From IMG/VR virus record IMGVR_UViG_3300032227_001172, positions 32,001 to 96,000 of that record: a stretch of 64,000 nucleotides of DNA; one strand, written 5' to 3'. Source of the DNA: a virus. Its lineage: Duplodnaviria > Caudoviricetes. The translations under genes were made by a program, and so were the position numbers. This document shows positions 3,322 to 64,000 of the stretch, in pieces. The notes beneath the pieces were generated by a model. The model did not search any database and was not told the origin of the DNA. It was given only the letters and a program-made list of their open reading frames with translations. Numbering within the stretch: the stretch's first letter is position 1; the number at the start of each line of letters is the position of its first letter.

Positions 3322-5070
3322 ATGGATTTATCATCAAATATCCTGCCAATAGATTTTGATTGGCAATTTTATATAGAGAACCATGCTGATTTACAGCAGG
3401 CTGGGATCAACTCGGAAATATTAGCAATTCAACACTATATAAATCACGGAATAAATGAACAGAGAAGATATAAATCTAATAATCATTATGAGATTCAAAA
3501 TTATATTAATAACTCTAAAGCTCACTATGTTCCACCCAAAACTAAAATAGTATTATTTGTACAATGGTATACTGATTCTTCCACAGAAAGCAATAGATTA
3601 AAATGCTTATTCAATAATATAGAAAATAAGCATATTGATCATATTCATGTATTTTGTGAGATAAATAGTCACCAGCAACTAATGAATTATATAGGAAGTA
3701 ATAAAAAAATTTCGATTTCTTTTATTGATGATTGCCTATCCTATTCCGATTGGATGGAGTACGCTAATCAACACCATATAAATGATATTAAAATTTTAGC
3801 TAATTCAGATATTTATTTTGATGATTCTTTGCTTTTCATTAGACAACAAAAATTTAATTACCAAACTATATATGGTATAACCAGAAAAGATTTAAGTCAT
3901 GATGGAAAGATTGTGGATAGTAGCGATTTTTATGGAGATACTAAACACCCAACACATGCATCATATTCTCAAGATTGTTGGATTTATTTACAACCACTAC
4001 GCTTGCCAGATTTAAAATTAATTAACTATAAATTAGGATATAATAATTGTGATAGATTATTAAAAAAATATTTAGAACAAGAAAAATATAATTTTGTTAA
4101 TTTATATCCAAATATTAATGCTATTCATATAGATTATCGTACTACAAAAACACACAAATCTTATGATCTAAATTATAGCTGTGCTAATGATAGAATTATA
4201 GATATTAAAGAATATTTACAATTCAATAATTTACAATATTATCATAATAATCTTGAAGCAATAGTACTATTGATGACCGGAAAGGAGATAGAAGATGGAC
4301 AATGTTTGTATTTTATACAAAAACTTTTACAAAGCCTAAAAAATAACGAAGCGAACAAGCTCTTTGCTAAACTATTAGATTTCAAAATAATTATAACCAA
4401 ACATAATGACTTATTAATTAGATACAAAGAACAACTAGAACAATATTTTAAAAATATATCTATTATACGTATCGATATACCACAACAATATGATTTTTAT
4501 GACGACTATACGGAAACATCTGATTTGAGATACGGTTATAAATCAGGACCCAACTATTGTTTTTTTAAAGCTTTTGATCATTTAACTATGTATAATACAA
4601 CATTATTTTTAGAATGTGATTGTACTATCATAGATAATTGGCTAGAAAGACTTTATAACTATTGTAGGTTTAGTGGTCAGTTTTGGATCTCTGGTGCTTG
4701 GTATGACGGATTGAATATGGACCCATATCATAGTATTGTAAACCAACACATCAATGGTGGTAGTGGTATATATGCTACTGGTAATCCAGGTTTTATTAGT
4801 TTTATTAAATTTTGTTTTCATTTATTGACAGTATATGTCGATAAGTATTCTAAAAATCTACCATATGATTATTGTATTTATCAAATTATAGAAGATTATT
4901 TTAATTTTGATCACGACAATAGACAACTATGGCAATTTATTAAAAGAAATTATATACACAATAATATAATTGTGAATTATAGTAATCCTAAAGACATAGA
5001 TATAGATATTAAATACATAATAAATAAATATAATCCAGCTATTCTACATCAAAAACTGATATTAAATTAA
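3322..5070 (+). CDS. Multidomain glycosyltransferase-like protein (N-terminal FDWxFY...HY..HG module plus two GT-A-like domains)
   Basis: DFDWQFYIENHADL..AG...A.QHY..HG..E.R at the N-terminus; ILANSDIYFD and SQDCW in domain 1; LFLECDC and HINGG..IY in domain 2. Confidence 0.6.
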   Translation: MDLSSNILPIDFDWQFYIENHADLQQAGINSEILAIQHYINHGINEQRRYKSNNHYEIQNYINNSKAHYVPPKTKIVLFVQWYTDSSTESNRLKCLFNNIENKHIDHIHVFCEINSHQQLMNYIGSNKKISISFIDDCLSYSDWMEYANQHHINDIKILANSDIYFDDSLLFIRQQKFNYQTIYGITRKDLSHDGKIVDSSDFYGDTKHPTHASYSQDCWIYLQPLRLPDLKLINYKLGYNNCDRLLKKYLEQEKYNFVNLYPNINAIHIDYRTTKTHKSYDLNYSCANDRIIDIKEYLQFNNLQYYHNNLEAIVLLMTGKEIEDGQCLYFIQKLLQSLKNNEANKLFAKLLDFKIIITKHNDLLIRYKEQLEQYFKNISIIRIDIPQQYDFYDDYTETSDLRYGYKSGPNYCFFKAFDHLTMYNTTLFLECDCTIIDNWLERLYNYCRFSGQFWISGAWYDGLNMDPYHSIVNQHINGGSGIYATGNPGFISFIKFCFHLLTVYVDKYSKNLPYDYCIYQIIEDYFNFDHDNRQLWQFIKRNYIHNNIIVNYSNPKDIDIDIKYIINKYNPAILHQKLILN

Positions 5071-9311: not shown

Positions 9312-9652
9312 TGCCTACCTATTCCTATTTTTGTGAAAAATGTAAAAATACTTTTGAGCTATTTTTTAGTTTAAGAGAATATAAAGAAACAGTCAAATGT
9401 CAAAAATGTAAAAATACATGTTCTAGACATTATGAAGACCTATTAACTATCAATAGTTCTGTTAAGAAAAGTGATACAGAGTTGAAAACTATTGGAGATT
9501 TAGCTAATAGAAATAGAGACCGAATGAGTGAAGAACAAAGGCAAGAGCTAACTGAAAAACATAATTCTTATAAAGATAATGATTTGATTAAAGAACTACC
9601 AAAAGGTATGTCAAGGATTAAGAAATCTAAAACCAAAACAAAGTGGAGATAA
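9311..9652 (+). CDS. FmdB-family zinc-ribbon protein
   Basis: MPTYSYFCEKC...FE...CQKC signature. Start moved to the TAATG overlap at 9311. Confidence 0.8.
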   Translation: MPTYSYFCEKCKNTFELFFSLREYKETVKCQKCKNTCSRHYEDLLTINSSVKKSDTELKTIGDLANRNRDRMSEEQRQELTEKHNSYKDNDLIKELPKGMSRIKKSKTKTKWR

Positions 9653-53359: not shown

Positions 53360-56300
53360 TTAGATATCTATCGTACCGCCACCAAAATTAGGAGGTTCAA
53401 CACCTTCTAAATTATTAGCAACCCAATCCTTCATTGATGCATCAATATTCGCCATAATTACGCCTTGAATAGCTGGTTGTAGTGCTGCAAATAGCTGTGC
53501 TCCTGTAATATCTACTGTTATTCTAGCTGGTTGCATTGCCAAATTAATTTGTTGTGGTATATTAATACGCTGTAATTCTTTGATCAAATTACCAAATTGC
53601 AAGACAAAACCAGCTACTCCATTATTTACACCATTGGCATTATTACCTCCAGCTGCTGCAGGACCCATTGCTGGTTGCTGAAAGCCTTGTAATATAGTAC
53701 CAAATTGTACCAATGTTTGATTAACACCAGTAAGTAAAGTGCCAAATATTGTAAGTTGTTGATTAATATTGCCAAATGATTCAGGATTAAATGCTGCTTG
53801 GGATGCTTGGTTTACCCTATTGGCTAATACCATTTGTGCTTGTGGTTGCATTACAACAGGTCTTGGTGTCAGCATTTGCTGTTGTTGAGCTTGTTGAGCT
53901 TGTTGAGCTCGTTGAACTTCATCGATACGTCTTTCTCTGGGATTTCTATGTTGACCTCTCCTGACGAAAATACCATCGCTTGCATATACTATTCCTCCAT
54001 TTTGATAATAACCATCATTTATAGCGCGTAACACAGGAAGATGTCGTTGTGTAGCTTGACGATTAACAACAAATTCGCCGGGAGTTAGCATTGCGGGTAC
54101 TGTGTCGGTACCACGAGGCTGATAGTTTACTAATGTTCCTGTTGATGCATATATAGCTCCACCATGGCTTCTATAGTTTAACTTTGGTGGAGATGGAGGA
54201 AGTGGCGGTGGAGTCATTTTTACGCCTTCTCCACCCTTAGTTTCCATAAATCTTACTAAACTTTTAGATAGTTCTCTGGTTTGTTCATCTGTACCAGGGA
54301 AATCCTGGAAATTAGACGTAAGAAATTCTTGGCTCCCAGAATTTTCTGCAATATCTAAGTAGTTCTGAGAAGTAAAACCCCTATCCTTGCTAAGTCTTGT
54401 TATAGCATCCAAAACTCGATCATGAGCCGTTAAAGTTTTTGGACCCCTTACTCCAACCTCTGCCATGATATCAGGTTGTATAAGAGACGCATCTTCCCTT
54501 CCAAATGCTAGTCCTGCGTTTCCATAACTACCACCAGATCGACCACGAGTATAATTATCAGCCTCAGATCTTAATGTCGAATTGATCCTATCTTTATCGA
54601 TCACTACACCCATATTAATTAATGCATCATCTACTAGAGACATAAAACCATCTTCTCCCAACTCTGTTCTCATCTGTTCTATAGATCTCTTTTTATAATA
54701 GTCTGCGGTTCCTTCTAATATATCATTAACTCCATATCCCATATGGTTTCTTGGAGTTGCCATTTCATGATATTGAGAAGTTGTTCTTTTGAGGACTGAA
54801 TCGGCTACTTGATCTCTGTTGTTCTCCATCCAAACTTTTAATAGTTTTCCAGTAGGATCCTTCATTGTCTGATAATGATGAGCAGCCTCATGAGCCACTG
54901 TGCCAATCATCTGTTCTGGGGTAATCTTAGGAGATATTCTACTCAAACCTCCCTGATAATCGCCGAGAGCTCCAGGAACAGGTTCTGTAAATCTTGTTGT
55001 TAATGAATCAAATGTTTTAGGATCTGCTCCAGAATAATGAATACTTTCAGCCAAGTTGTCTCTGGCTTTATATACTAACTGATCAACACTTATTGGACCG
55101 TCAACATAGCGACCTCCAAATCCTTTCATTCCTACAAACGGAGTAATCGCTTCTGATATGGGTCTATTTAATGCTTTTTCAGCATATCTTATCTGTTTTG
55201 GTGTTAATCCTCCGGGACCAACCATTGAATCTCCAACCCTTGTTGGTGTGGGTATAGAAGGCAAAGCTAACGATAGTAACCCTCCTGTTGCAACATCTCC
55301 TGCTGTTGATCCTGCCATTGCTGATACGGGATTTTCATCCATTAGTTGATTAGCTATAGCGTTAGGCTTTGGAGCTCCCGTATTTAATGCTGTTTCTTGC
55401 ACCAACGATCCTACTCCAGCTCCAGTAATACCTCCAATCAAGCCTCCCGCAATAATTCCAGGAGGTCCTAATGGAGCAAGGGCAGCTGCCGCTATTATAG
55501 CACCAGAAGTAGCCCCCATTTGAGGAACAAAAGACTTAGCAGCTCCGGCAGCAAAAGCTGCTCTGCTACGCATGGCCGCATATTCTGGATGATTAAAAGA
55601 TGTTTCTGGTAAAAGTTTAAATTCATTTGCTGAAATTTCTCTGCCATTTTGATCCAAATAGGTTTTAGATCCACCACTCTGTGATATGTGCGGAATACCC
55701 ATTCGCTTTAAACTTCTAGAATACTCACTATCTCTTATAACAGAATTTTTATCGTGAACTCCTTCTTTAAAAGATCCTGATTGAACAGTTGGTGTTGGTA
55801 GTTTTGGTCTTGATGGATCAAATCCATCTTGAGCATAAACCACACCGCCCTTACTCAATACAATAGCTGCTCTAGCATAAAACTGATTATATAAACTATC
55901 TACATATTCTTGAGATAATAAACTTTTATTTTTTAAAGATTCTATAGTATCATAATAATGTTGTATTCCTGTTTGTATATCTAGGACACGCTCATTCTCA
56001 GGAACTGTTTTAACTCCACCTATAAATTCTGACCAGTTCGTTGGTGGTTTTACTTTTTTATTATCAATTAATGGTTTAAGTGTGCTACGCATAGCACCAA
56101 ACCTAACATCCATTTCTCTAGCTTTATAAAAATAATCAATCTCGTCTTCTGTTAAAGATCCGTCTTTTTGTAATGCATTATATAAAGGCTGCAGATATTG
56201 ATTTGTACTAATTGATGTTCTGTTATCTTTTGTTACAGCAGGGCTTGTGGTGTGTCTCTGTAAGTAATGTCTAAGTTCATGAGCTACTATAGCCCACCAT

Positions 56301-59300
56301 TCTTTATATTCTTGAGGATCCAATCTATTATTTTGGTTACCAACTCTGTTATCTTGATCAAAGGTTTGCCAAGGGGCGACAAAAACATTTTGTGGTCCAT
56401 TATCTTTTCCTATATTTTCTCCAAGTAAGCCTCCGCCAATAAGTTTGACATTAACAGGAACTTTTTTATCTAAAAGTTTATTTATAGGTGTTTTTTGACC
56501 ACCTAGTGATTGTAAGGCAGGAAATACTGATTCTGATTGCGGACCATTACCCATTTCTCTATTAGCCTGAATATTATCAGTATCCATATTTTGTCCAGAA
56601 CGCTCCATCGCATCTCTCAGCCTTGTTATTGTTCTATTGCCGATTTCCATTCCTTCTGTTGATATGTTTTGTTGTATTCTTTGTGCTTGTTGTGTTTGTT
56701 TTGTCGATCTTGACGCTGATTCGACTTGAACTCCATTTTGAGCATAAACTACACCGCCATTATTATAATAACCATCATTAATAGCATGGAGTAATGGTAA
56801 ATGTTTTTGTGTAGCCGCCCTATTAATTACAAATTCTCCTGGTGTTAACATGGCGGGAACAGTGTCTGTGCCTTTTGGTTGGTAATTAACCAGTGTGCCA
56901 TCGGCAGCATAAACCATACCCCCACGATACATTCCCATCGGTTGTCCAGGTTGTGGACCTTGGGGAGGTGCTGGTATTGGTTGTCCGGGCAATTGTGGTA
57001 TTACGCCACCTATTTGAGCAGCTATAGCTTGAATAGCATTATTCATCACAACACCAAAATCATCTAATACGTTCAAAATCTTGTCTGACGCTATAGCTTG
57101 AGCTTCACAGCATTGTTTTAGCATAGCAATAGTATAATCTAGTTTTTCTTGACTAGTAATATTATTTTGAGGAACTGCCTGAGTATTAGTTTGAATATTA
57201 TCTTTATTAATATATCCTAGTTTAGTACTTTCTTTAGCGTTCATCAAAACTTCATCGATACGTTTATCTGGAGCTGGTTCTATTTGTACTCCATCAACAT
57301 ATTTAGTTGGATCAGTAGTCATACTTGCGCCTCCGACACCACCATCCGCTAGATACTCTATTTTACCACCCCTGCTGCGATTGATACTTTGTAATAATGG
57401 TAAATGTTTTTGTGTTGCTGCTCTATTAACAACAAACTCTCCTGGCGTTAACATTGCTGGCACAGTATCTGTTCCTTGTGGCTGATATGGAACCAACATA
57501 CCAGTACTAGCATATATAATTCCGCCCCTACTCTTTGTTGCTACTTTATTAGATACTCTAATAGCTTCATTTTGTGTTTGTTGGGCAGGATATAAAAAGC
57601 CAGCTACATTTCCACCTCCCAGAGCATTCAGTCTTGCGATATTAAAGTCATTATTAGCTCGTGGATCAATAAGTCCTTGTTTTGCTGCTCTAGTATATAA
57701 ATTAGCTTGTGCCATTTTTTTCTGGCCAGGATTCAGCTTATCAAATCTTGATACTAATTTTTCGAATACTCCAATTTGTTTGGATGATCTAACGAAGGTG
57801 CTTTCAAACTGTTTGGTAATTTCTTTACGTTCTGCTGGAGAGGCCGAACTAATAATCTGTTGTAGTCTAGGATCATTCTCAACATTTTTGGATAAATTAT
57901 TTTGTTGTACTCTTAATGCTGCTACCACTTGAGAAGCTTTTGGACTTAGTGGCGCATTTTGAAGCATAGAGCTATATATTGATACTAATTCTTGTGAATT
58001 AAAAGGATTATATACGGCATCTATCATGTCTGGTGGTATACCAAGAGTTCCTAGAGCTTCTGGAGTTCTAGCACCGAATGGGAAATCTTTTTGTAGTTTT
58101 TTCTGTAGATTTTTTCTCCATGTTAAAAATACGCCAGGATTAGAAAATTTATCTGGAATAGGCATATTCATATACTTAGCAGTAGCACGTATCTGATCTC
58201 CTTGCTGTTTAGCTAATTTATCATTAGCTTTCTTTTCTTCTCTTTGCTGTGCTTTAGCTTGTACTAGTTGTCCAGATTTATATTGATCCCAAAGTTTTTG
58301 ACGACCCTCGGTATCTAGTTGATCATATTTTTTATCTTTATATTCTTGATTTATATTTTGATTGACTGTATTTAATTGACCATATAATGTATCTAGTCTA
58401 GCATTTTTTTCTTTTTCCCATTTGAGTTCATCACCAGCAAATGAATTATTTGGATCATATCTAGAAGCTTTTTCTTCTTGGATTTGCCTATATAATTCTT
58501 CACGGTCTGTGACAGACTTTTGGAATTCTGGACTAAACGCATTTGGTGGTAAACGCTTTATCCATGGAATAACACGGTTAGTGCTTTCGCTGGTTTCACG
58601 ATAAGACCCAAACTTTTGTTGTAAAAGTCTTTGTTCTGGAGTTAATGGCTTATCTAAACCAAAACCATCTAAAGACATTCTATTAGGATCAGTTGCATAA
58701 ATAGCATCGTCAATTCTACCTCTTTCTGCATCTATATTAGCTTGTCTTTGCATCTTAGCGTTTTGAGCAGCCTCAGCTTTCTCAAGATCTTCATTTGTGG
58801 CCCATTCCCTTAAACCAACAGCTTTTTTACGTTCAGTAAGTTTTGTTCTTTCACTCCATTGTTTATCAAAAAGAGCATCTGCATCTGCTTGTTCTCTAGC
58901 TTGTTGGTCAGCTTTTTGCACGGCGGCATCTTTATCCTCTGCTGCCATCTGACTTCTAGCCTCACTAGTTCGTCTTTGATAAGATGCTTCTTTTTGAATT
59001 TCTTCATTCAAAGTAGCATCATCAAATGTAGAACTGTTGAAGAATGATCCGGTTCTAACGAATAACTGTTCTTCATTTCTTGTGGCGCTAGCTCTTTTTT
59101 GATCTTGGTAAGCTTGAGCTTTACGAGCTTCTAAATCTGCAACTAGTCTATCTCCTGCTTGAGTACGAGGTTTTGCTTTTAAATCCTCAATTTTATTCTG
59201 CAATTTAGCTTGTTGTTCAATAAATAAAATCTCAGCAACAGATCGTCCTTCATAAGTTTCTCTTCCTCCGGCTCTTCTGGCAACTTCGGCTTCTCTGCTA

Positions 59301-62300
59301 TCTTCTAGATTAGATCTACCAGCATTTTCCATTCTGCGAGTAGTTTCTCTGCTAGTAGATAAGTTTTGTCTATCATTATAAAGACCAGTAGTTTCTCTTC
59401 CTACTGAACCTACAATTTGTGCACCTCCAGCGATCGAAGCCCCGATTAAAGCTCCAGGAGGACCAAAAACTCGTCCAGCTATTGCTCCTTCGCCTATGGC
59501 AAAACCGAACTCTGTTAAATTACCAGCAGCAAGGTCTGTATAGCCACCCCGCTCAACACCTAAAGCACCACCAATCATACTCCTTTCTGCTCCAACATCT
59601 CCTCCACCACTAACACTTCCAGTTAAAGCTCCTGTAATACCTCCTCCTTCATAAGCAACATACGCTCTTTGTGCTAATGTTAATATTGGACCTAGTACAC
59701 TAAAAGTCTTTCCTAAAAATTCTCTAGTAGCAGGACTAGTGGCGAGTTTAAATAAATCTAACTTTAATAAATTTGGTATATTCATTCCTTTAAGTTTTGG
59801 AATTTTTTCACCGATATAACTTAACAAATTTGAAAGACTTTGAAAATATTTCTCAGCAATAAAACCTTTAGCTGCATTTCCACCGGTTTGTACCGCAGAC
59901 CCACCCTTTTTACCGGCATTAAATAATACCTGAGTTTGAGCATCTATATCTGCTAATAAAGCCGTCGGATCAAGACCACCAGCAGCATAAACCACACCGC
60001 CACGACTAAATGTTTTACTATTTCCAGCACTACCATTAATAGCACTTAATAATCCTAAATTATTTTTAGTAGCTTGAGCATTAACTACAAATTCTCCAGG
60101 ACTTAACATAGCAGGGATAGTATCAGTACCTCGTGGCTGGTAATTTACATATGTTCCATCACTAGCATATACGATACCTCCACCAGATAATCTTTGAGTA
60201 TTAGTAGCTTGACCCGGAGTTCCTACTCCAAAACCAGCACCACGTAATTGTTCGGTGTCAAATTTTACTCTAACTTCACTTAATGCTTTTATAAATGTTT
60301 GATTAGCACTATCTAATATGTCTTTTTGTTTAGCTAATATTCCTTCATTTAGTGCTTGTGTGCTTGTAGCAAGTTCTGCTTGTTGTGCTTTTAACATTCC
60401 TTGTAAAGCTTGGATTTCTGGACTTTGTTCTGGAGGCTGTCTTAGTAACTCAATCATTTTTTGGAACATAGGATTATTCTGAAGTCCCATTCCTTGAGCT
60501 TTAGCAAAATTCTCTAATAAATCAGCTCTCATATTATTAATTTGTGGTCCCTCTAGACCACTCATTTGAGATAACTGATTAAACAACCCTAAAGCGCTCT
60601 TAGTTTGTCCAGCAAAAGCCTGTTGAGCAGCGGCGTATGCTTCTTGTTGTGTTGATCCATTTTGTAGCGCCTGAAAATAAGCTTGTTGAGCAGCTTGAGA
60701 CTGATTGATGGTTGTAATTTGACCATTCAATGTATTATTAAGTAAATTAAATGTGGAATTTAATTCTCCTAATTCTTGCGGGGTGCTTCCTACTAGTTGT
60801 TCGGCAAATGATCCTGCTGCTTGTTGGCGACCACTTAATTCTTGTTGTATTCTACCAATTTCGCCGATAATATCATTAATATTTCCTTCGATAGCTCCGG
60901 GTAAACTTTCTAATCCTTGTTCTGTTGCTTTTAGGGCGCTCTCAGTTTCTGCTAATTTTTTAGTCAGCGCTGTGAATCTAGCGTCTGCTTTAGGAATAGT
61001 AGAATCAAAAGTATTAGCAGTATTTTGTAAAGCTGATCTGATAGCATTTACTTCTTTTTGTAATGTATCTTTACGAGAAGCTAAATCTGTAGCATTTAAT
61101 TGTTCGGGAGCTACGCCAGCTCTAGTAGCGGCGACATTTCTTCTAGATTGAAGTCTTTCTCCTATGCCGACTCTTTGACCCAAAGCTTCTTTTAATGCTA
61201 TATTAGATTGTGTTAGGGTGTTTTGATAATTTGCTTGATTTTCTCTTAGATTTTGTTGTAGTTTACCATATTCATTAGCAGCATTGGCCGCAAAATTCAT
61301 AGCCTCTTGTACAAGCTTTAAACTATTCTGTAAAGCTTCAAAAGCTTGCTTGCTTGCTTGTAATTGATTGCTTAAGCCAGATTCTTCCAATAGTTTTTGA
61401 ATATCTATTTCCTCGCCACGTTTTAAAGATTCTTCAATTTTATCTTTAAATTCATTTCTCAATCTATCCCCAAGATCATTTCTGCCAAATACAGCATCTA
61501 TTTTTTGTGTTAATTGATTTATAATATTTGTTGCTACTACGGCCTGATTAGCTCCTGTTTGTTGTGCTCTAGCGGCTCCACCAGCCACGATATCTTCTGC
61601 GTCTAAACTGAATCTAGCTAATTGTTCAATAAATCCTCGATCTCTACCAGCAAATTGAGATGCTTGACCGATAGCAGTATTTTGTTGTTCTCTACCAAAT
61701 GCTCTTGGATTTTGTAAAACATTTAAAGCATCAAGATTCGCAGTAAATCCAGTTGCTCCAGATACTATTTTTTGCAAATCATCACTGGCCTGTTTTAAAC
61801 TTGCTGATGACGCATTGATGGCCTGATTAAGATTATCAAAAGTTCTTGTCATACTAGCAGATACTACATTTATTTTTTGCGTAAGCTTTTGTGCAGCTTT
61901 AGCTCTAGCAGAATCGGCAAATTCAGCATTAGCTAATGTTCTGGCTTGATCAACATATTTTCGTTTAACTCCTTGAATAGCTCTTTCCTTTAGTTGCTCT
62001 GCCATATTAGATTTTTGTATGGTAGTTACTTCTGCTTGGTATTCAGGATTAGCTTCTGCGATAGCCGTATATAAATCCGATAAAGCAACTCCTTGTTGTT
62101 GTAAAATATTAGTTACTTGATCGTAACTTTTACCCGCAGCAATCATACTACTAATTAAAGCTTGAGCCTCTTGCGCTGCTGCTTGTTGCTCCGCTGTTCT
62201 TGCTCCAGAAATTTCCGCTGATGATCTTTTATCTCCTCCTAAGTAACCAAAAGTAGCTGTGCTCAATGCTCTACTAACCATTCCTGGTTGTTCAGCCTTA

Positions 62301-64000
62301 AGATTGGAAGCCATCCGTTTTTCTTCTAAGGCTTGAATTTTTTGAAAATTAGTAACTAATGTTCCAGCATCTTCGGATCGTCCAGTTTTAACAAATCTTT
62401 CTCTCACTTGGGCAGATTGTTCTACTGCTTTATCTAGTTGTATGGTGGCTAGTTCAGATTCTTTTTGGGCTACAGCGGATGCGAATCCATCCACAGCAGC
62501 AACAGCGCCGACTAATGCTCCCGCAATAGCCCCAATGCCACCAAACTGAGCACCTATAGATGTGTATGTTGAAAAAGCAGTGGCTCCTCCAGCAATACCA
62601 GCACCCGTAGTTCCTCCGATACTGTCTCCAATTTGTTGTGCCAGCATTGGACCAGTGAAAGCTAAAGCCGTACCTAAATTAGATAAATTTAAACCTCCTG
62701 TTCTTCCGCCTCCACCAGCCATGTCTCCGTCATCCTGTGCTTGAGCAGAATTATTCTGTGCTGTAGTTAGTTGTTGTGTAGATGTATTAAGTTGCTGTTG
62801 TGATTGAGCGGTTTGCTTTACCTTTTGTATCAGTCCACCCCAAGCCTGTGACACTCTTTGTTCCGCAGCTGCTCTTGCATCTGCAACAGAAACACTATTG
62901 TTAGTAGCTCGAATTTGTCTTGTTAATGCATTAACTTGCTGCCTTTGCTGTTGATACACGAGTTCTGCGGCTCTCTGGTCTCCTGTCTCTGCTGCTTGTT
63001 TAGCACCAAACAACACTTGAGATTCAGGCAAAACCCTACCAGATGCTTCAGCATATGCATCATCAAAAGACATAGTAGGATTAGCTTTTGCTATTTGGCT
63101 TACCACTTTTGCCATCATGTTTTCAACTGCTTGTTCTAATGCTTTAGCTGCGTCTTCTCCAACTCTAGATGCAGTAGACGAGAATTCAAAAACATCTCCA
63201 CCATTATTAAATTTCTGTACTCCAACTCTTCCTCCTCTATTGAAACCAAGAGCTTTTGTTGCCTTGGCACGTAGGATAAAACTGCCTTCTGGCAAGCTGG
63301 TGCGAATACTATCGCTCGTACCGCTACCTGGACCTTTAAATACGCTAATACCACCCTTACTAAACCGTCCCATACCATTACGATCAGCCTGATTCATACG
63401 TTTTAAGTTACCATAGCCAATGCTCTTAGCTGTTTTGGGTGGCACATAGGCTTCGCCATTACTAACTAGAGCAGGTACAGATCCTCCGTCAGCAAACTGC
63501 TGAACATCAGCCCATAGGTTATGTCTACCCATCAAGTCTACATATTTAGCTTTATCTACTCTGAATCTAGAACGAGGAGAAAGGATAAATTCATTTTCTT
63601 CACTAGGCTGTTTCATGAAGAATGTTTCCATCTGGCCTGTTCTTGGATTGATATCTTTTTTAGTTACATTAATTTTACGATCTTTAAATTGTTCAGCGAC
63701 ATCTACTCCTTGACCATTTTTCTTAGTCCTAACAGTAAGCATAGCTGCCCAATTATCTTCAGATCTTGGGGCGTTATCTAAAAAAGATTTAGCAACTGCA
63801 TAATTTTTACTCGTAGAAACAAAACCTGGAAGACTAAAGGCTTTACCAACAATTTTAGCTACTTCTTGAGCATAGTAGGTTTGTCTATTATTATATTTTG
63901 TATCTTTTGGAATATCTGGACTTTTATTTAAACCAGTATCCATAGCAAATTTATCAAAGGCATTACGAGATAATGAACTATATAGTTCCTCTGGTGCTGG
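53360..64000 (-). CDS. Tape-measure-like polyvalent protein (>3,540 aa, 5'-truncated) carrying ADP-ribosyltransferase, two HExxH metallopeptidase domains, glycine-zipper TM hairpins and repeated GG-flanked spacers
   Basis: Frame is open to nt 64000 (PAPEELYSSLSRNAFDKFAMDTG...). About 1000-aa Ala/Gln-rich helical region; GPGSGTSDSI and PAML.PGEFVVN motifs typical of tape-measure proteins; lies upstream of the tail-tip genes. Confidence 0.8.
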   Translation of the reverse strand, partial: PAPEELYSSLSRNAFDKFAMDTGLNKSPDIPKDTKYNNRQTYYAQEVAKIVGKAFSLPGFVSTSKNYAVAKSFLDNAPRSEDNWAAMLTVRTKKNGQGVDVAEQFKDRKINVTKKDINPRTGQMETFFMKQPSEENEFILSPRSRFRVDKAKYVDLMGRHNLWADVQQFADGGSVPALVSNGEAYVPPKTAKSIGYGNLKRMNQADRNGMGRFSKGGISVFKGPGSGTSDSIRTSLPEGSFILRAKATKALGFNRGGRVGVQKFNNGGDVFEFSSTASRVGEDAAKALEQAVENMMAKVVSQIAKANPTMSFDDAYAEASGRVLPESQVLFGAKQAAETGDQRAAELVYQQQRQQVNALTRQIRATNNSVSVADARAAAEQRVSQAWGGLIQKVKQTAQSQQQLNTSTQQLTTAQNNSAQAQDDGDMAGGGGRTGGLNLSNLGTALAFTGPMLAQQIGDSIGGTTGAGIAGGATAFSTYTSIGAQFGGIGAIAGALVGAVAAVDGFASAVAQKESELATIQLDKAVEQSAQVRERFVKTGRSEDAGTLVTNFQKIQALEEKRMASNLKAEQPGMVSRALSTATFGYLGGDKRSSAEISGARTAEQQAAAQEAQALISSMIAAGKSYDQVTNILQQQGVALSDLYTAIAEANPEYQAEVTTIQKSNMAEQLKERAIQGVKRKYVDQARTLANAEFADSARAKAAQKLTQKINVVSASMTRTFDNLNQAINASSASLKQASDDLQKIVSGATGFTANLDALNVLQNPRAFGREQQNTAIGQASQFAGRDRGFIEQLARFSLDAEDIVAGGAARAQQTGANQAVVATNIINQLTQKIDAVFGRNDLGDRLRNEFKDKIEESLKRGEEIDIQKLLEESGLSNQLQASKQAFEALQNSLKLVQEAMNFAANAANEYGKLQQNLRENQANYQNTLTQSNIALKEALGQRVGIGERLQSRRNVAATRAGVAPEQLNATDLASRKDTLQKEVNAIRSALQNTANTFDSTIPKADARFTALTKKLAETESALKATEQGLESLPGAIEGNINDIIGEIGRIQQELSGRQQAAGSFAEQLVGSTPQELGELNSTFNLLNNTLNGQITTINQSQAAQQAYFQALQNGSTQQEAYAAAQQAFAGQTKSALGLFNQLSQMSGLEGPQINNMRADLLENFAKAQGMGLQNNPMFQKMIELLRQPPEQSPEIQALQGMLKAQQAELATSTQALNEGILAKQKDILDSANQTFIKALSEVRVKFDTEQLRGAGFGVGTPGQATNTQRLSGGGIVYASDGTYVNYQPRGTDTIPAMLSPGEFVVNAQATKNNLGLLSAINGSAGNSKTFSRGGVVYAAGGLDPTALLADIDAQTQVLFNAGKKGGSAVQTGGNAAKGFIAEKYFQSLSNLLSYIGEKIPKLKGMNIPNLLKLDLFKLATSPATREFLGKTFSVLGPILTLAQRAYVAYEGGGITGALTGSVSGGGDVGAERSMIGGALGVERGGYTDLAAGNLTEFGFAIGEGAIAGRVFGPPGALIGASIAGGAQIVGSVGRETTGLYNDRQNLSTSRETTRRMENAGRSNLEDSREAEVARRAGGRETYEGRSVAEILFIEQQAKLQNKIEDLKAKPRTQAGDRLVADLEARKAQAYQDQKRASATRNEEQLFVRTGSFFNSSTFDDATLNEEIQKEASYQRRTSEARSQMAAEDKDAAVQKADQQAREQADADALFDKQWSERTKLTERKKAVGLREWATNEDLEKAEAAQNAKMQRQANIDAERGRIDDAIYATDPNRMSLDGFGLDKPLTPEQRLLQQKFGSYRETSESTNRVIPWIKRLPPNAFSPEFQKSVTDREELYRQIQEEKASRYDPNNSFAGDELKWEKEKNARLDTLYGQLNTVNQNINQEYKDKKYDQLDTEGRQKLWDQYKSGQLVQAKAQQREEKKANDKLAKQQGDQIRATAKYMNMPIPDKFSNPGVFLTWRKNLQKKLQKDFPFGARTPEALGTLGIPPDMIDAVYNPFNSQELVSIYSSMLQNAPLSPKASQVVAALRVQQNNLSKNVENDPRLQQIISSASPAERKEITKQFESTFVRSSKQIGVFEKLVSRFDKLNPGQKKMAQANLYTRAAKQGLIDPRANNDFNIARLNALGGGNVAGFLYPAQQTQNEAIRVSNKVATKSRGGIIYASTGMLVPYQPQGTDTVPAMLTPGEFVVNRAATQKHLPLLQSINRSRGGKIEYLADGGVGGASMTTDPTKYVDGVQIEPAPDKRIDEVLMNAKESTKLGYINKDNIQTNTQAVPQNNITSQEKLDYTIAMLKQCCEAQAIASDKILNVLDDFGVVMNNAIQAIAAQIGGVIPQLPGQPIPAPPQGPQPGQPMGMYRGGMVYAADGTLVNYQPKGTDTVPAMLTPGEFVINRAATQKHLPLLHAINDGYYNNGGVVYAQNGVQVESASRSTKQTQQAQRIQQNISTEGMEIGNRTITRLRDAMERSGQNMDTDNIQANREMGNGPQSESVFPALQSLGGQKTPINKLLDKKVPVNVKLIGGGLLGENIGKDNGPQNVFVAPWQTFDQDNRVGNQNNRLDPQEYKEWWAIVAHELRHYLQRHTTSPAVTKDNRTSISTNQYLQPLYNALQKDGSLTEDEIDYFYKAREMDVRFGAMRSTLKPLIDNKKVKPPTNWSEFIGGVKTVPENERVLDIQTGIQHYYDTIESLKNKSLLSQEYVDSLYNQFYARAAIVLSKGGVVYAQDGFDPSRPKLPTPTVQSGSFKEGVHDKNSVIRDSEYSRSLKRMGIPHISQSGGSKTYLDQNGREISANEFKLLPETSFNHPEYAAMRSRAAFAAGAAKSFVPQMGATSGAIIAAAALAPLGPPGIIAGGLIGGITGAGVGSLVQETALNTGAPKPNAIANQLMDENPVSAMAGSTAGDVATGGLLSLALPSIPTPTRVGDSMVGPGGLTPKQIRYAEKALNRPISEAITPFVGMKGFGGRYVDGPISVDQLVYKARDNLAESIHYSGADPKTFDSLTTRFTEPVPGALGDYQGGLSRISPKITPEQMIGTVAHEAAHHYQTMKDPTGKLLKVWMENNRDQVADSVLKRTTSQYHEMATPRNHMGYGVNDILEGTADYYKKRSIEQMRTELGEDGFMSLVDDALINMGVVIDKDRINSTLRSEADNYTRGRSGGSYGNAGLAFGREDASLIQPDIMAEVGVRGPKTLTAHDRVLDAITRLSKDRGFTSQNYLDIAENSGSQEFLTSNFQDFPGTDEQTRELSKSLVRFMETKGGEGVKMTPPPLPPSPPKLNYRSHGGAIYASTGTLVNYQPRGTDTVPAMLTPGEFVVNRQATQRHLPVLRAINDGYYQNGGIVYASDGIFVRRGQHRNPRERRIDEVQRAQQAQQAQQQQMLTPRPVVMQPQAQMVLANRVNQASQAAFNPESFGNINQQLTIFGTLLTGVNQTLVQFGTILQGFQQPAMGPAAAGGNNANGVNNGVAGFVLQFGNLIKELQRINIPQQINLAMQPARITVDITGAQLFAALQPAIQGVIMANIDASMKDWVANNLEGVEPPNFGGGTIDI
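53882..53908. repeat. 9-bp tandem repeat x3 (TTGTTGAGC), encoding AQQ AQQ AQQ
   Basis: Seen directly in the sequence. Confidence 0.8.
53972..54175 (-). repeat. Intragenic spacer repeat, copy 5
   Basis: YRSHGGAIYASTGTLVNYQPRGTDTVPAMLTPGEFVVNRQATQRHLPVLRAINDGYYQNGGIVYASDG. Confidence 0.9.
55823..55858 (-). repeat. Partial spacer repeat (GG-VYAxxG end only)
   Basis: LSKGGVVYAQDG. Confidence 0.75.
56732..56932 (-). repeat. Intragenic spacer repeat, copy 4
   Basis: MYRGGMVYAADGTLVNYQPKGTDTVPAMLTPGEFVINRAATQKHLPLLHAINDGYYNNGGVVYAQNG. Confidence 0.9.
57338..57535 (-). repeat. Intragenic spacer repeat, copy 3
   Basis: KSRGGIIYASTGMLVPYQPQGTDTVPAMLTPGEFVVNRAATQKHLPLLQSINRSRGGKIEYLADGG. Confidence 0.9.
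59975..60190 (-). repeat. Intragenic spacer repeat, copy 2
   Basis: LSGGGIVYASDGTYVNYQPRGTDTIPAMLSPGEFVVNAQATKNNLGLLSAING...FSRGGVVYAAGG. Confidence 0.9.
63197..63496 (-). repeat. Intragenic spacer repeat, copy 1 (degenerate, doubled)
   Basis: FADGGSVPALVSNGEAYV...FSKGG...GPGSGTSDSIRTSLPEGSFILRAKAT...FNRGG...FNNGG. Confidence 0.75.

Follow-up and report, generated by a model that had tools for sequence, protein, structure and literature searches.

A 64,000-base stretch of phage DNA (the window) carries on its minus strand most of a gene for a 5,078-aa tape measure protein (TMP), in which a conserved paired-GG motif, with or without a longer spacer, separates fixed scaffold blocks from variable cassettes. 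In the best explanation, to which we give a probability of about 0.55, this siphophage-type TMP is a multi-cassette delivery vehicle whose chain is cut at the motif. That the protein delivers cargo appears very probable when considered separately; given delivery, release of the cargo by cutting is favoured with less assurance.

A tape measure protein of scaffold and cargo

The window holds the 3′ 70% of the gene at 53360..64000 (−), corresponding to aa 1533–5078 of 5,078; the reading frame continues past the window edge, with its start 4.6 kb beyond it, at G000:C1:100596. The full gene (G000:C1:85360–100596, minus strand) lies in a complete 230,691-base (230.7-kb) phage genome with terminal repeats. 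Beyond the window it adds a PhageMin_Tail domain, one full spacer (aa 521–594), end-only motifs near aa 836, 1029 and 1470, and three further cassettes. The initial annotation had called the protein tape-measure-like, and it is indeed a TMP: PF10145 matches aa 192–383 at 81.1 bits (cut-off 33.2), and hits to many TMP families of PHROG cover the N-terminus and the spacers, with E values down to 1e-22. Upstream, the same strand carries terminase, portal and fibre-like genes, and the TMP gene is followed 28 bases on by the gene for a 1,527-aa tail-type protein. Genes of 365 and 289 aa match tube and chaperone by size and place, neither with a family match. No sheath was matched in the phage genome, which fits a non-contractile tail.

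The whole gene is present, with zero differences, in a single contig of public run X1, which is possibly the source of the assembly rather than an independent observation. Misassembly was rejected on the basis of this contig (from what may be the source run) and of 46 other complete genes with the same layout. Searches found no cultured relative, and no RNA dataset was listed as containing the gene. Three matches lay in MAGs with unrelated labels; they are probably binned phage contigs and were left out of any host assignment.

To define the family, 80 related loci were completed by stitching, yielding 47 full genes; with cluster representatives added, these gave 147 proteins with an intact N-terminus, a few of which may be short at the C-terminus. 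The relatives span 1,565–7,872 aa and carry 2–10 spacer copies in a constant order: N-terminal domain, spacer, bay 1, spacer, helical segment F2, spacer, second segment, bay 2, spacer and cap. The N-terminal domain has a median length of 517 aa and is followed by a spacer in 146/147 proteins, the second segment measures ~970 aa, and bay 2 is present in 82/139. Bay 1 totals 136–3,353 aa and bay 2 87–3,116 aa. Cassettes inside the bays have a median length of ~290 aa and are often parted by the short motif alone, and some adjoin with no detectable motif between them.

This layout changes how the window is read (Table 1). The initial annotation had treated every block between spacers as an effector. 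Because F2 occurs in 139/147 relatives and the other two parts keep fixed slots, the ~1,000-aa and ~810-aa blocks and the cap are scaffold, and the true cargo in the window consists of the ART cassette and the 135-, 290- and 550-aa cassettes. When tabulated across homologs, the content between motifs was highly variable, the opposite of the invariant content that would have counted against the initial annotation. The family to which the second segment belongs, F6, occupies the same slot in 7/47 full genes, with F7 or F9 there in other lineages.

Table 1 Features of the TMP gene within the window
Feature	Position (strand)	Residues	Remarks
ART-fold cassette, bay 1 cargo	63506..64000 (−)	aa 1485–1697	Cut by window edge; PF03496, 29.3 bits (cut-off 23.4)
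Doubled degenerate spacer, closes bay 1	63197..63502 (−)	aa 1699–1800	Many relatives are likewise doubled at this slot
Helical scaffold F2, ~1,000 aa	60197..63196 (−)		Gly/Ala-rich hydrophobic hairpin 62459–62644; in 139/147 relatives
Full spacer	59972..60196 (−)	aa 2801–2875	
Second scaffold-like segment, ~810 aa	57542..59971 (−)		Family F6; fixed slot, fast-evolving; weak hydrophobic stretch 59393–59509
Full spacer, opens bay 2	57335..57541 (−)	aa 3686–3754	
135-aa bay 2 cassette	56939..57334 (−)		Pro-rich linker at end; one relative, P0019, 75% over 83 aa
Full spacer	56726..56938 (−)	aa 3887–3957	AlphaFold2 model made
HExxH zincin-like cassette 1, bay 2, ~290 aa	55865..56725 (−)		Peptidase call is the motif alone (56267–56281)
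End-only paired-GG boundary	55823..55864 (−)	aa 4245–4258	25 bits
550-aa bay 2 cassette	54179..55822 (−)		Hydrophobic hairpin 55394–55531, HExxH zincin-like domain 2 (54878–54892) and Pro-rich linker
Last full spacer	53969..54178 (−)	aa 4807–4876	Corresponds in position to the lone spacer of lambda gpH
C-terminal cap, ~200 aa	53363..53968 (−)		Last spacer to C-terminus: median 145 aa in relatives

The six spacer and motif coordinates of the initial annotation were right, as the lower (+ strand) ends of minus-strand features, and both HExxH motifs and both Pro-rich linkers lie where it had placed them. The hydrophobic stretches it reported are also present, although the hairpin of the 810-aa segment is weakly hydrophobic (Kyte–Doolittle 1.34). 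Hydropathy of the TMP peaks at aa 473–507, 2013–2046 and 4356–4401; across the family, a value of 1.6 is reached by 57% of F2 segments. Helicity was judged from composition alone. By comparison with lambda gpH, F2 is a candidate part of a membrane channel (PMC12617516), and the structures of T5, lambda and Douge suggest that the cap is likely to be a tail-tip plug.

The boundary is conserved as a protein element

A profile search of the whole TMP revealed seven spacer copies, including the one beyond the window. The protein also has four end-only paired-GG motifs, the last near aa 4245. The four intact spacers of the window are 57–60% identical to the first copy. The paired-GG pattern occurs 252 times in the 47 full TMPs versus 1.7 times in local shuffles (~150-fold) and, among the 211 ORFs of at least 100 aa in the genome, is confined to the TMP. 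A ~65-aa spacer had been proposed as the standard cassette boundary; its role as a boundary was confirmed, but 209 boundaries in relatives are end-only, versus 726 full ones, and the smallest unit that forms a boundary is the paired-GG motif. Regular spacing was ruled out by spacer-to-spacer distances that are irregular (58–2,264 aa, coefficient of variation (CV) 0.53).

Across 163 copies of the spacer core, second codon positions were 98% identical, whereas synonymous third positions were 51% identical versus 48% expected. Conservation was equal within and between genomes, with no homogenisation of the copies within genomes, and the saturated synonymous sites ruled out DNA-level homogenisation. 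As judged from these codon patterns, the spacer is kept as protein and not as DNA, and recombination exploits an element of protein function. The initial annotation had cast the motif as a homology anchor for cassette swapping. Swapping does occur there, but since synonymous sites are saturated, the anchor role is a by-product of protein-level conservation.

The spacer is an old and widespread element, with 30,202 clusters matching its profile. Lambda gpH matches at residues 730–786 with an E value of 8e-7 against all PDB sequences; the TMPs of Douge (two copies), JBD30 and, weakly, Chi also match, as does that of TM4, just ahead of muralytic motif 3. The core is mostly hydrophobic residues, Pro and Gly, and a Glu is the one polar residue common to lambda, JBD30, Douge and Chi. 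AlphaFold2 modelled the spacer from 130 sequences as a hairpin and two short helices with moderate confidence (pLDDT 72.6, pTM 0.42); a model from 39 sequences was poor (pLDDT 59). The model matched no solved fold and no active site was recognised in it, so that no function was assigned on the basis of fold; a search of BFVD returned weak TMP matches only. Because the spacer flanks unrelated folds and its motifs lie flush with domain ends, for example immediately behind the final strand of the ART, it does not belong to the folds of its neighbours.

Cassettes are exchanged at the motif

Two relatives (L003 and L067) are 93% identical over 1,148 aa of bay 1, whereas their N-terminal domains are 58% identical. 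Similarly, the window ART cassette is 81% identical to that of L049, versus 61% for the N-terminal scaffold, and in the alignments shown the similarity to the L049 ART starts and stops at FAxGG motifs. Across the 147 proteins we counted 41 such swap islands in 36 genomes, which are not independent of each other; 74% of island ends fell within 10 aa of a boundary, versus 21% when islands were placed at random (at most 34% in 500 placements). Cargo families are also scattered on the scaffold tree, with 21 changes among 30 carriers for one and 15 among 18 for another (FastTree, without a shuffle control).

A second public run, X2, from the same study as X1, contains a strain that is 98.2% identical over 8.4 kb among the contigs listed. 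Among these contigs, the strain departs from or returns to the gene at four points that each fall within a motif (aa 842, 1039, 4255 and 4816), and runs on for ~1 kb and 4.4 kb in other DNA past the exits. Two exits fall in the window, at 55832 (the end-only motif 55823–55864) and 54151 (the first motif of the last spacer), again among the contigs listed; within the same set, the 550-aa cassette seems to have given way to other sequence in the main X2 strain, whereas a shallower contig carries a ~90% identical version of it. X2 also holds an 84% identical variant of zincin-like cassette 1. The exchange at the motif that had been suspected is thus borne out by the 93% versus 58% islands, the clustering of island ends and the X2 exits, and these sequence comparisons show that cassettes move between phages by recombination at the motifs.

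Cargo is diverse and sorted by bay

Greedy clustering grouped 46% of 193,000 cargo residues into 32 recurring families. Bay 1 carries ARTs, a HAD and nuclease-like pair, a NadR-like module and SNase; bay 2 carries zincins and membrane hairpins. The sorting is strict for some types, with 22 STS-type ART and 36 HAD cassettes in bay 1 and 0 in bay 2, and a hydrophobic segment was present in 1% of bay 1 cassettes versus 10% of bay 2 cassettes. Database searches support ART (PF03496), ART-PolyVal (weakly), EF-hands and a PNK-like HAD (PHROG), as well as a P-loop plus HIGH nucleotidyltransferase that is NadR/NMNAT-like (E 2.4e-4) and an SNase (E 5e-4). PD-(D/E)xK-like nucleases, GNAT, H-Y-type ART, kinase and zincins were called by motif only, and the HAD, nuclease, GNAT, kinase and zincin cargo gave no significant profile match. 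Most cargo had no match in Pfam or PDB profile searches, and catalytic-type residues are invariant within cargo families. These more than 30 recurring families, mostly unfamiliar to Pfam, are candidates for host take-over or counter-defence.

The putative ART in the window, of the R-S-E clade, scores above the Pfam cut-off and keeps STS and ExE, but lacks the canonical first-strand Arg, which is Ser in the window ART and Ser or Thr in all 15 aligned family members that cover the strand. HExxH motifs are well above chance, with 60 found versus 0.75 in shuffles. For the two in the window, a BLAST search of the 147 TMPs found no relative of zincin-like cassette 1, whose look-alikes in the Atlas are unnamed viral proteins, and a homolog search with zincin-like domain 2 found none. 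The initial annotation had considered the zincin domains as a processing protease. HExxH is carried by 44/147 relatives, in diverse cassettes and in either bay, and is absent from 103/147, which excludes the zincins as the obligatory processing protease; they are optional cargo and not the processing enzyme.

Relation to tape measure cleavage in lambda and T5

Once the lambda tail is assembled, gpH sheds ~14 kDa from the Gly-rich region at its C-terminus, and both the exact cut site and the catalyst are still unknown (PMC12617516). The spacer homolog of gpH falls in this region of cleavage. Cutting at the first motif of the homolog would free ~12.5 kDa, slightly under the reported 14 kDa, and GG pairs 15–25 residues upstream of the spacer fit 14 kDa equally. 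In T5 pb2 the site is disputed, with one report placing the cut after R1127 (PMC10038345) and an older one at V1148 (PMC11937520). The R1127 site reads R followed by A-E-G-G, with G-E 14 residues later. Aligning the T5 site with the spacer by hhalign paired R-A-E-G-G with F-A-x-G-G at an E value of 0.34, from a shallow T5 profile for which the homolog search yielded only near-identical phages; by profile, the T5 link was thus not significant. Together, the lambda and T5 data are suggestive rather than conclusive, and would place the cut before A-x-G-G, not after GG.

The phage genome contains no match to PF14464 (JAB) or PF00877 (NlpC/P60) that would indicate a protease like lambda gpK. A 517-aa gene between the portal and capsid genes is a candidate head protease.

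A delivery model and its alternatives

A fixed scaffold (N-terminal TMP domain, two helical/hydrophobic segments and cap) carries two variable bays, with each cassette bounded at both ends by an [F/Y]-A-x-G-G type motif, with or without the 40-residue core. In the preferred reading, the chain would lie stretched out inside a tail of great length, ~760 nm if each residue adds 0.15 nm; in TM4, tail length includes the contribution of an enzyme motif (PMC1796659). The C-terminus would leave first, so that bay 2, with its zincins and hairpins, would meet the envelope, and the middle segments would build a channel. Bay 1 (ARTs, HAD, nuclease-like, NadR-like and GNAT-like cassettes, with almost no membrane segments) would arrive last, in the cytoplasm ahead of the DNA, where its enzymes may take over the host or blunt its defences. 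The least certain step is that the motif would be a conserved TMP maturation signal, multiplied in this protein, at which the chain is cut, most likely just after the aromatic residue. This would yield pieces of ~57, 33, 25, 108, 97, 16, 34, 65 and 22 kDa and two from aa 837–1472. Since copies occur along the whole chain, and the chain has to stay whole while it sets tail length, cutting would have to follow assembly, carried out either by the core of the spacer or in the course of ejection or later. A JAB or NlpC/P60 protease was not found in the genome, and for a protease bound at the tip, motifs hundreds of nanometres up the tube would be out of reach, which leaves self-processing or cutting at ejection. 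End-only motifs without a core would need to be cut in trans. It is conceivable, if doubtful, that the spacer core is itself the self-processing module, the catalyst responsible for the maturation of lambda gpH and of TMPs in tens of thousands of further families, and that this phage family multiplied it. If so, the tail lumen would be a magazine of separately released, swappable anti-host enzymes, at the price of tails of up to ~1.2 µm.

The main rival to cutting at the motif, which we hold to be possible at lower probability, is that the same cargo system works uncut. The spacer would then be a structural hinge or knot that shields domains from each other and serves to register the chain or to contact a chaperone inside the tail lumen, and the cargo would fold while tethered to the channel after ejection. 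All of the swap and layout evidence fits this arrangement equally; the mostly hydrophobic, Pro and Gly composition of the core and its modelled hairpin and two helices without a recognised active site are in keeping with it, and some polyvalent proteins are delivered uncut (PMC5512222). However, the single copy in lambda sits in the region that is cut, the motifs are flush with domain ends, their irregular spacing is unlike a periodic register mark, and a tether would not need a strict [F/Y]AxGG.

Two further explanations would move the cut or dispense with functional cargo. A phage or host protease might cut the chain early, before or during assembly, so that the scaffold pieces alone act as the ruler, the cargo is stored elsewhere, in the head, or works in the producing cell, and tails are much shorter than the gene predicts. 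Such a scheme would avoid the costly tails of 0.8–1.2 µm otherwise predicted for the longest members, which to our knowledge are at or above the longest known. The tail of Thermus phage P74-26 measures ~0.9 µm. The candidate head protease could supply the activity. Yet early cutting is unlikely: in lambda the cut follows tail assembly, in TM4 the enzyme motif adds to tail length, and here the cargo lies between scaffold blocks, so the ruler would be split; moreover, the motif is in no other protein of the genome, and the genome yielded no JAB or NlpC/P60 protease gene. It is more improbable still that the repeated units serve chiefly as anchors for DNA recombination, or arose by neutral duplication, and that the inserts are functionless passengers, as the clustering of breakpoints at the motif, the large share of cargo without assigned identity and the ART without its canonical residue might suggest. 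Saturated synonymous sites in the core, copies that are not homogenised within genomes, frames that stay open across up to 7,872 codons, invariant catalytic-type residues in cargo families and the sorting of cargo types by bay all argue against it.

Comparison with known systems

The nearest counterparts are the one-spacer siphophage TMPs (lambda gpH, JBD30, Chi and TM4 gp17, along with Douge gp16, which has two copies), which share the homologous spacer, an N-terminal TMP domain and a short cap after the last spacer. Lambda gpH is, in addition, cut in the spacer region and ejected to form a channel (PMC12617516), and in TM4 gp17 the spacer comes just before an enzyme motif. Whereas these proteins have 1–2 copies and their known cargo is muralytic, the TMPs described here have 2–10 copies plus end-only motifs and cargo that is ART, phosphatase-, nuclease-, NAD-metabolism- and peptidase-like. 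Their internal bays reach 3,300 aa and are exchanged from genome to genome. T5 pb2 is likewise a TMP cut near its C-terminus and has R then A-E-G-G at R1127, but it has a single, disputed site and no significant match to the spacer profile.

In polymorphic toxins (Rhs, CdiA and MuF), a conserved carrier bears a variable enzyme module that is swapped at a conserved boundary motif marking the cut. The exchange of variable modules at a conserved motif is common to both systems. Here, however, there are several internal cassettes rather than a single C-terminal toxin, a conserved cap forms the C-terminus, the TMP gene adjoins neither an immunity gene nor orphan cassettes, and the carrier is an essential part of the tail. 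Polyvalent proteins, as described by Iyer et al. 2017 (PMC5512222), are phage-encoded chains of unrelated enzyme domains (ART, ART-PolyVal, zincin, nuclease-like and GNAT-like) that are thought to be injected and for which processing has been proposed; the TMP here likewise joins several unrelated enzyme domains in one chain. According to that paper, polyvalent proteins are packaged in the capsid or transferred by a T4SS, whereas the carrier here is a TMP scaffold, and their processing is ascribed to zincins, which are absent from 70% of the TMPs studied here. The paper makes no mention of tape measure proteins, and its passages covered here describe no repeated boundary motif (PMC5512222).

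Our data suggest that, in addition to the capsid and the T4SS, mobile elements may have a third means of delivering many enzymes at entry: a tail ruler whose cargo is swapped between near-identical strains. The motif also provides a sequence handle on the old question of where, and by what, lambda gpH is cut (PMC12617516), and evolution has marked the functional unit many times, which offers point mutants for testing in lambda or TM4. For this uncultured family of large phages the model predicts tails that are very long and differ widely in length, ~290–1,180 nm across complete relatives, and the family offers a catalogue of more than 30 recurring putative cargo families from which to draw candidates for host take-over or counter-defence. 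A repeated-spacer cargo TMP was not found in the open literature searched; each ingredient has precedent, and it is their combination that this literature does not describe. In its workings the protein resembles both polyvalent proteins and polymorphic toxins, but by its carrier and layout it is a member of neither; it is a TMP.

Range of tape measure protein layouts

The simplest layout among the relatives is found in the tape measure proteins (TMPs) of three related loci, L018, L024 and L037 (from locus positions 9560, 8418 and 9581, respectively), which have only two spacers and carry bay 1 and the F2 scaffold segment with neither bay 2 nor a separate cap. At 1,958–2,647 aa, these minimal proteins are helpful as the simplest form of the TMP layout. 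The TMP of a further locus, L062, stops after 1,565 aa, and the next ORF resembles its continuation; this end may reflect a frameshift or an assembly error, making the lower limit of TMP length uncertain. Four very small ORFs (P0161, P0205, P0243 and P0263; 57–72 aa), all on contigs longer than 100 kb, consist of the spacer alone; they could be spacer genes in their own right or fragments left where a frameshift has broken up a TMP gene.

Genomic surroundings

The six large genes following the TMP gene constitute an uncharacterised tail tip, with no Pfam family above the cut-off in any of them, and the gene immediately after the TMP varies among relatives. No Pfam or PHROG match was obtained for the probable capsid and head protease or scaffold genes, and the paired-GG motif is absent from the second giant gene.

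Coordinates of features in the phage genome (contig G000:C1; L001 and L148 are stretches of it)
Feature	Position	Strand	Remarks
Three further bay 1 cassettes	G000:C1:96186-98830 = L001 12187-14831	minus	TMP aa 590-1471; beyond window
Unknown 250-aa domain	within G000:C1:96186-98830	minus	bay 1 cassette
ART-PolyVal-like domain	within G000:C1:96186-98830	minus	bay 1 cassette
HAD fused to PD-(D/E)xK-like domain	within G000:C1:96186-98830	minus	bay 1 cassette; HAD DFDET intact
Six large genes following TMP	window 31877-53332	minus	1,527, 580, 550, 1,307, 533, 2,631 aa
Probable capsid and head protease or scaffold	G000:C1:150249-153323 = L148 7250-10324		337 and 517 aa; adjoining portal and terminase
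Second giant gene	G000:C1:114835-128604		4,589 aa; tail region

Cargo of the two bays

The pairing of HAD and nuclease-like domains is the most frequent cargo (70 of 139). Single cassette families occur twice within one protein in three loci (F32 in L032, zincin F12 in L003 and ART F10 in L061), indicating that cassettes also duplicate inside a gene. The L061 protein (P0003), at 7,794 aa the longest of the TMPs considered in detail, carries an EF-hand cassette in bay 2, which fits an extracytoplasmic role for this bay.
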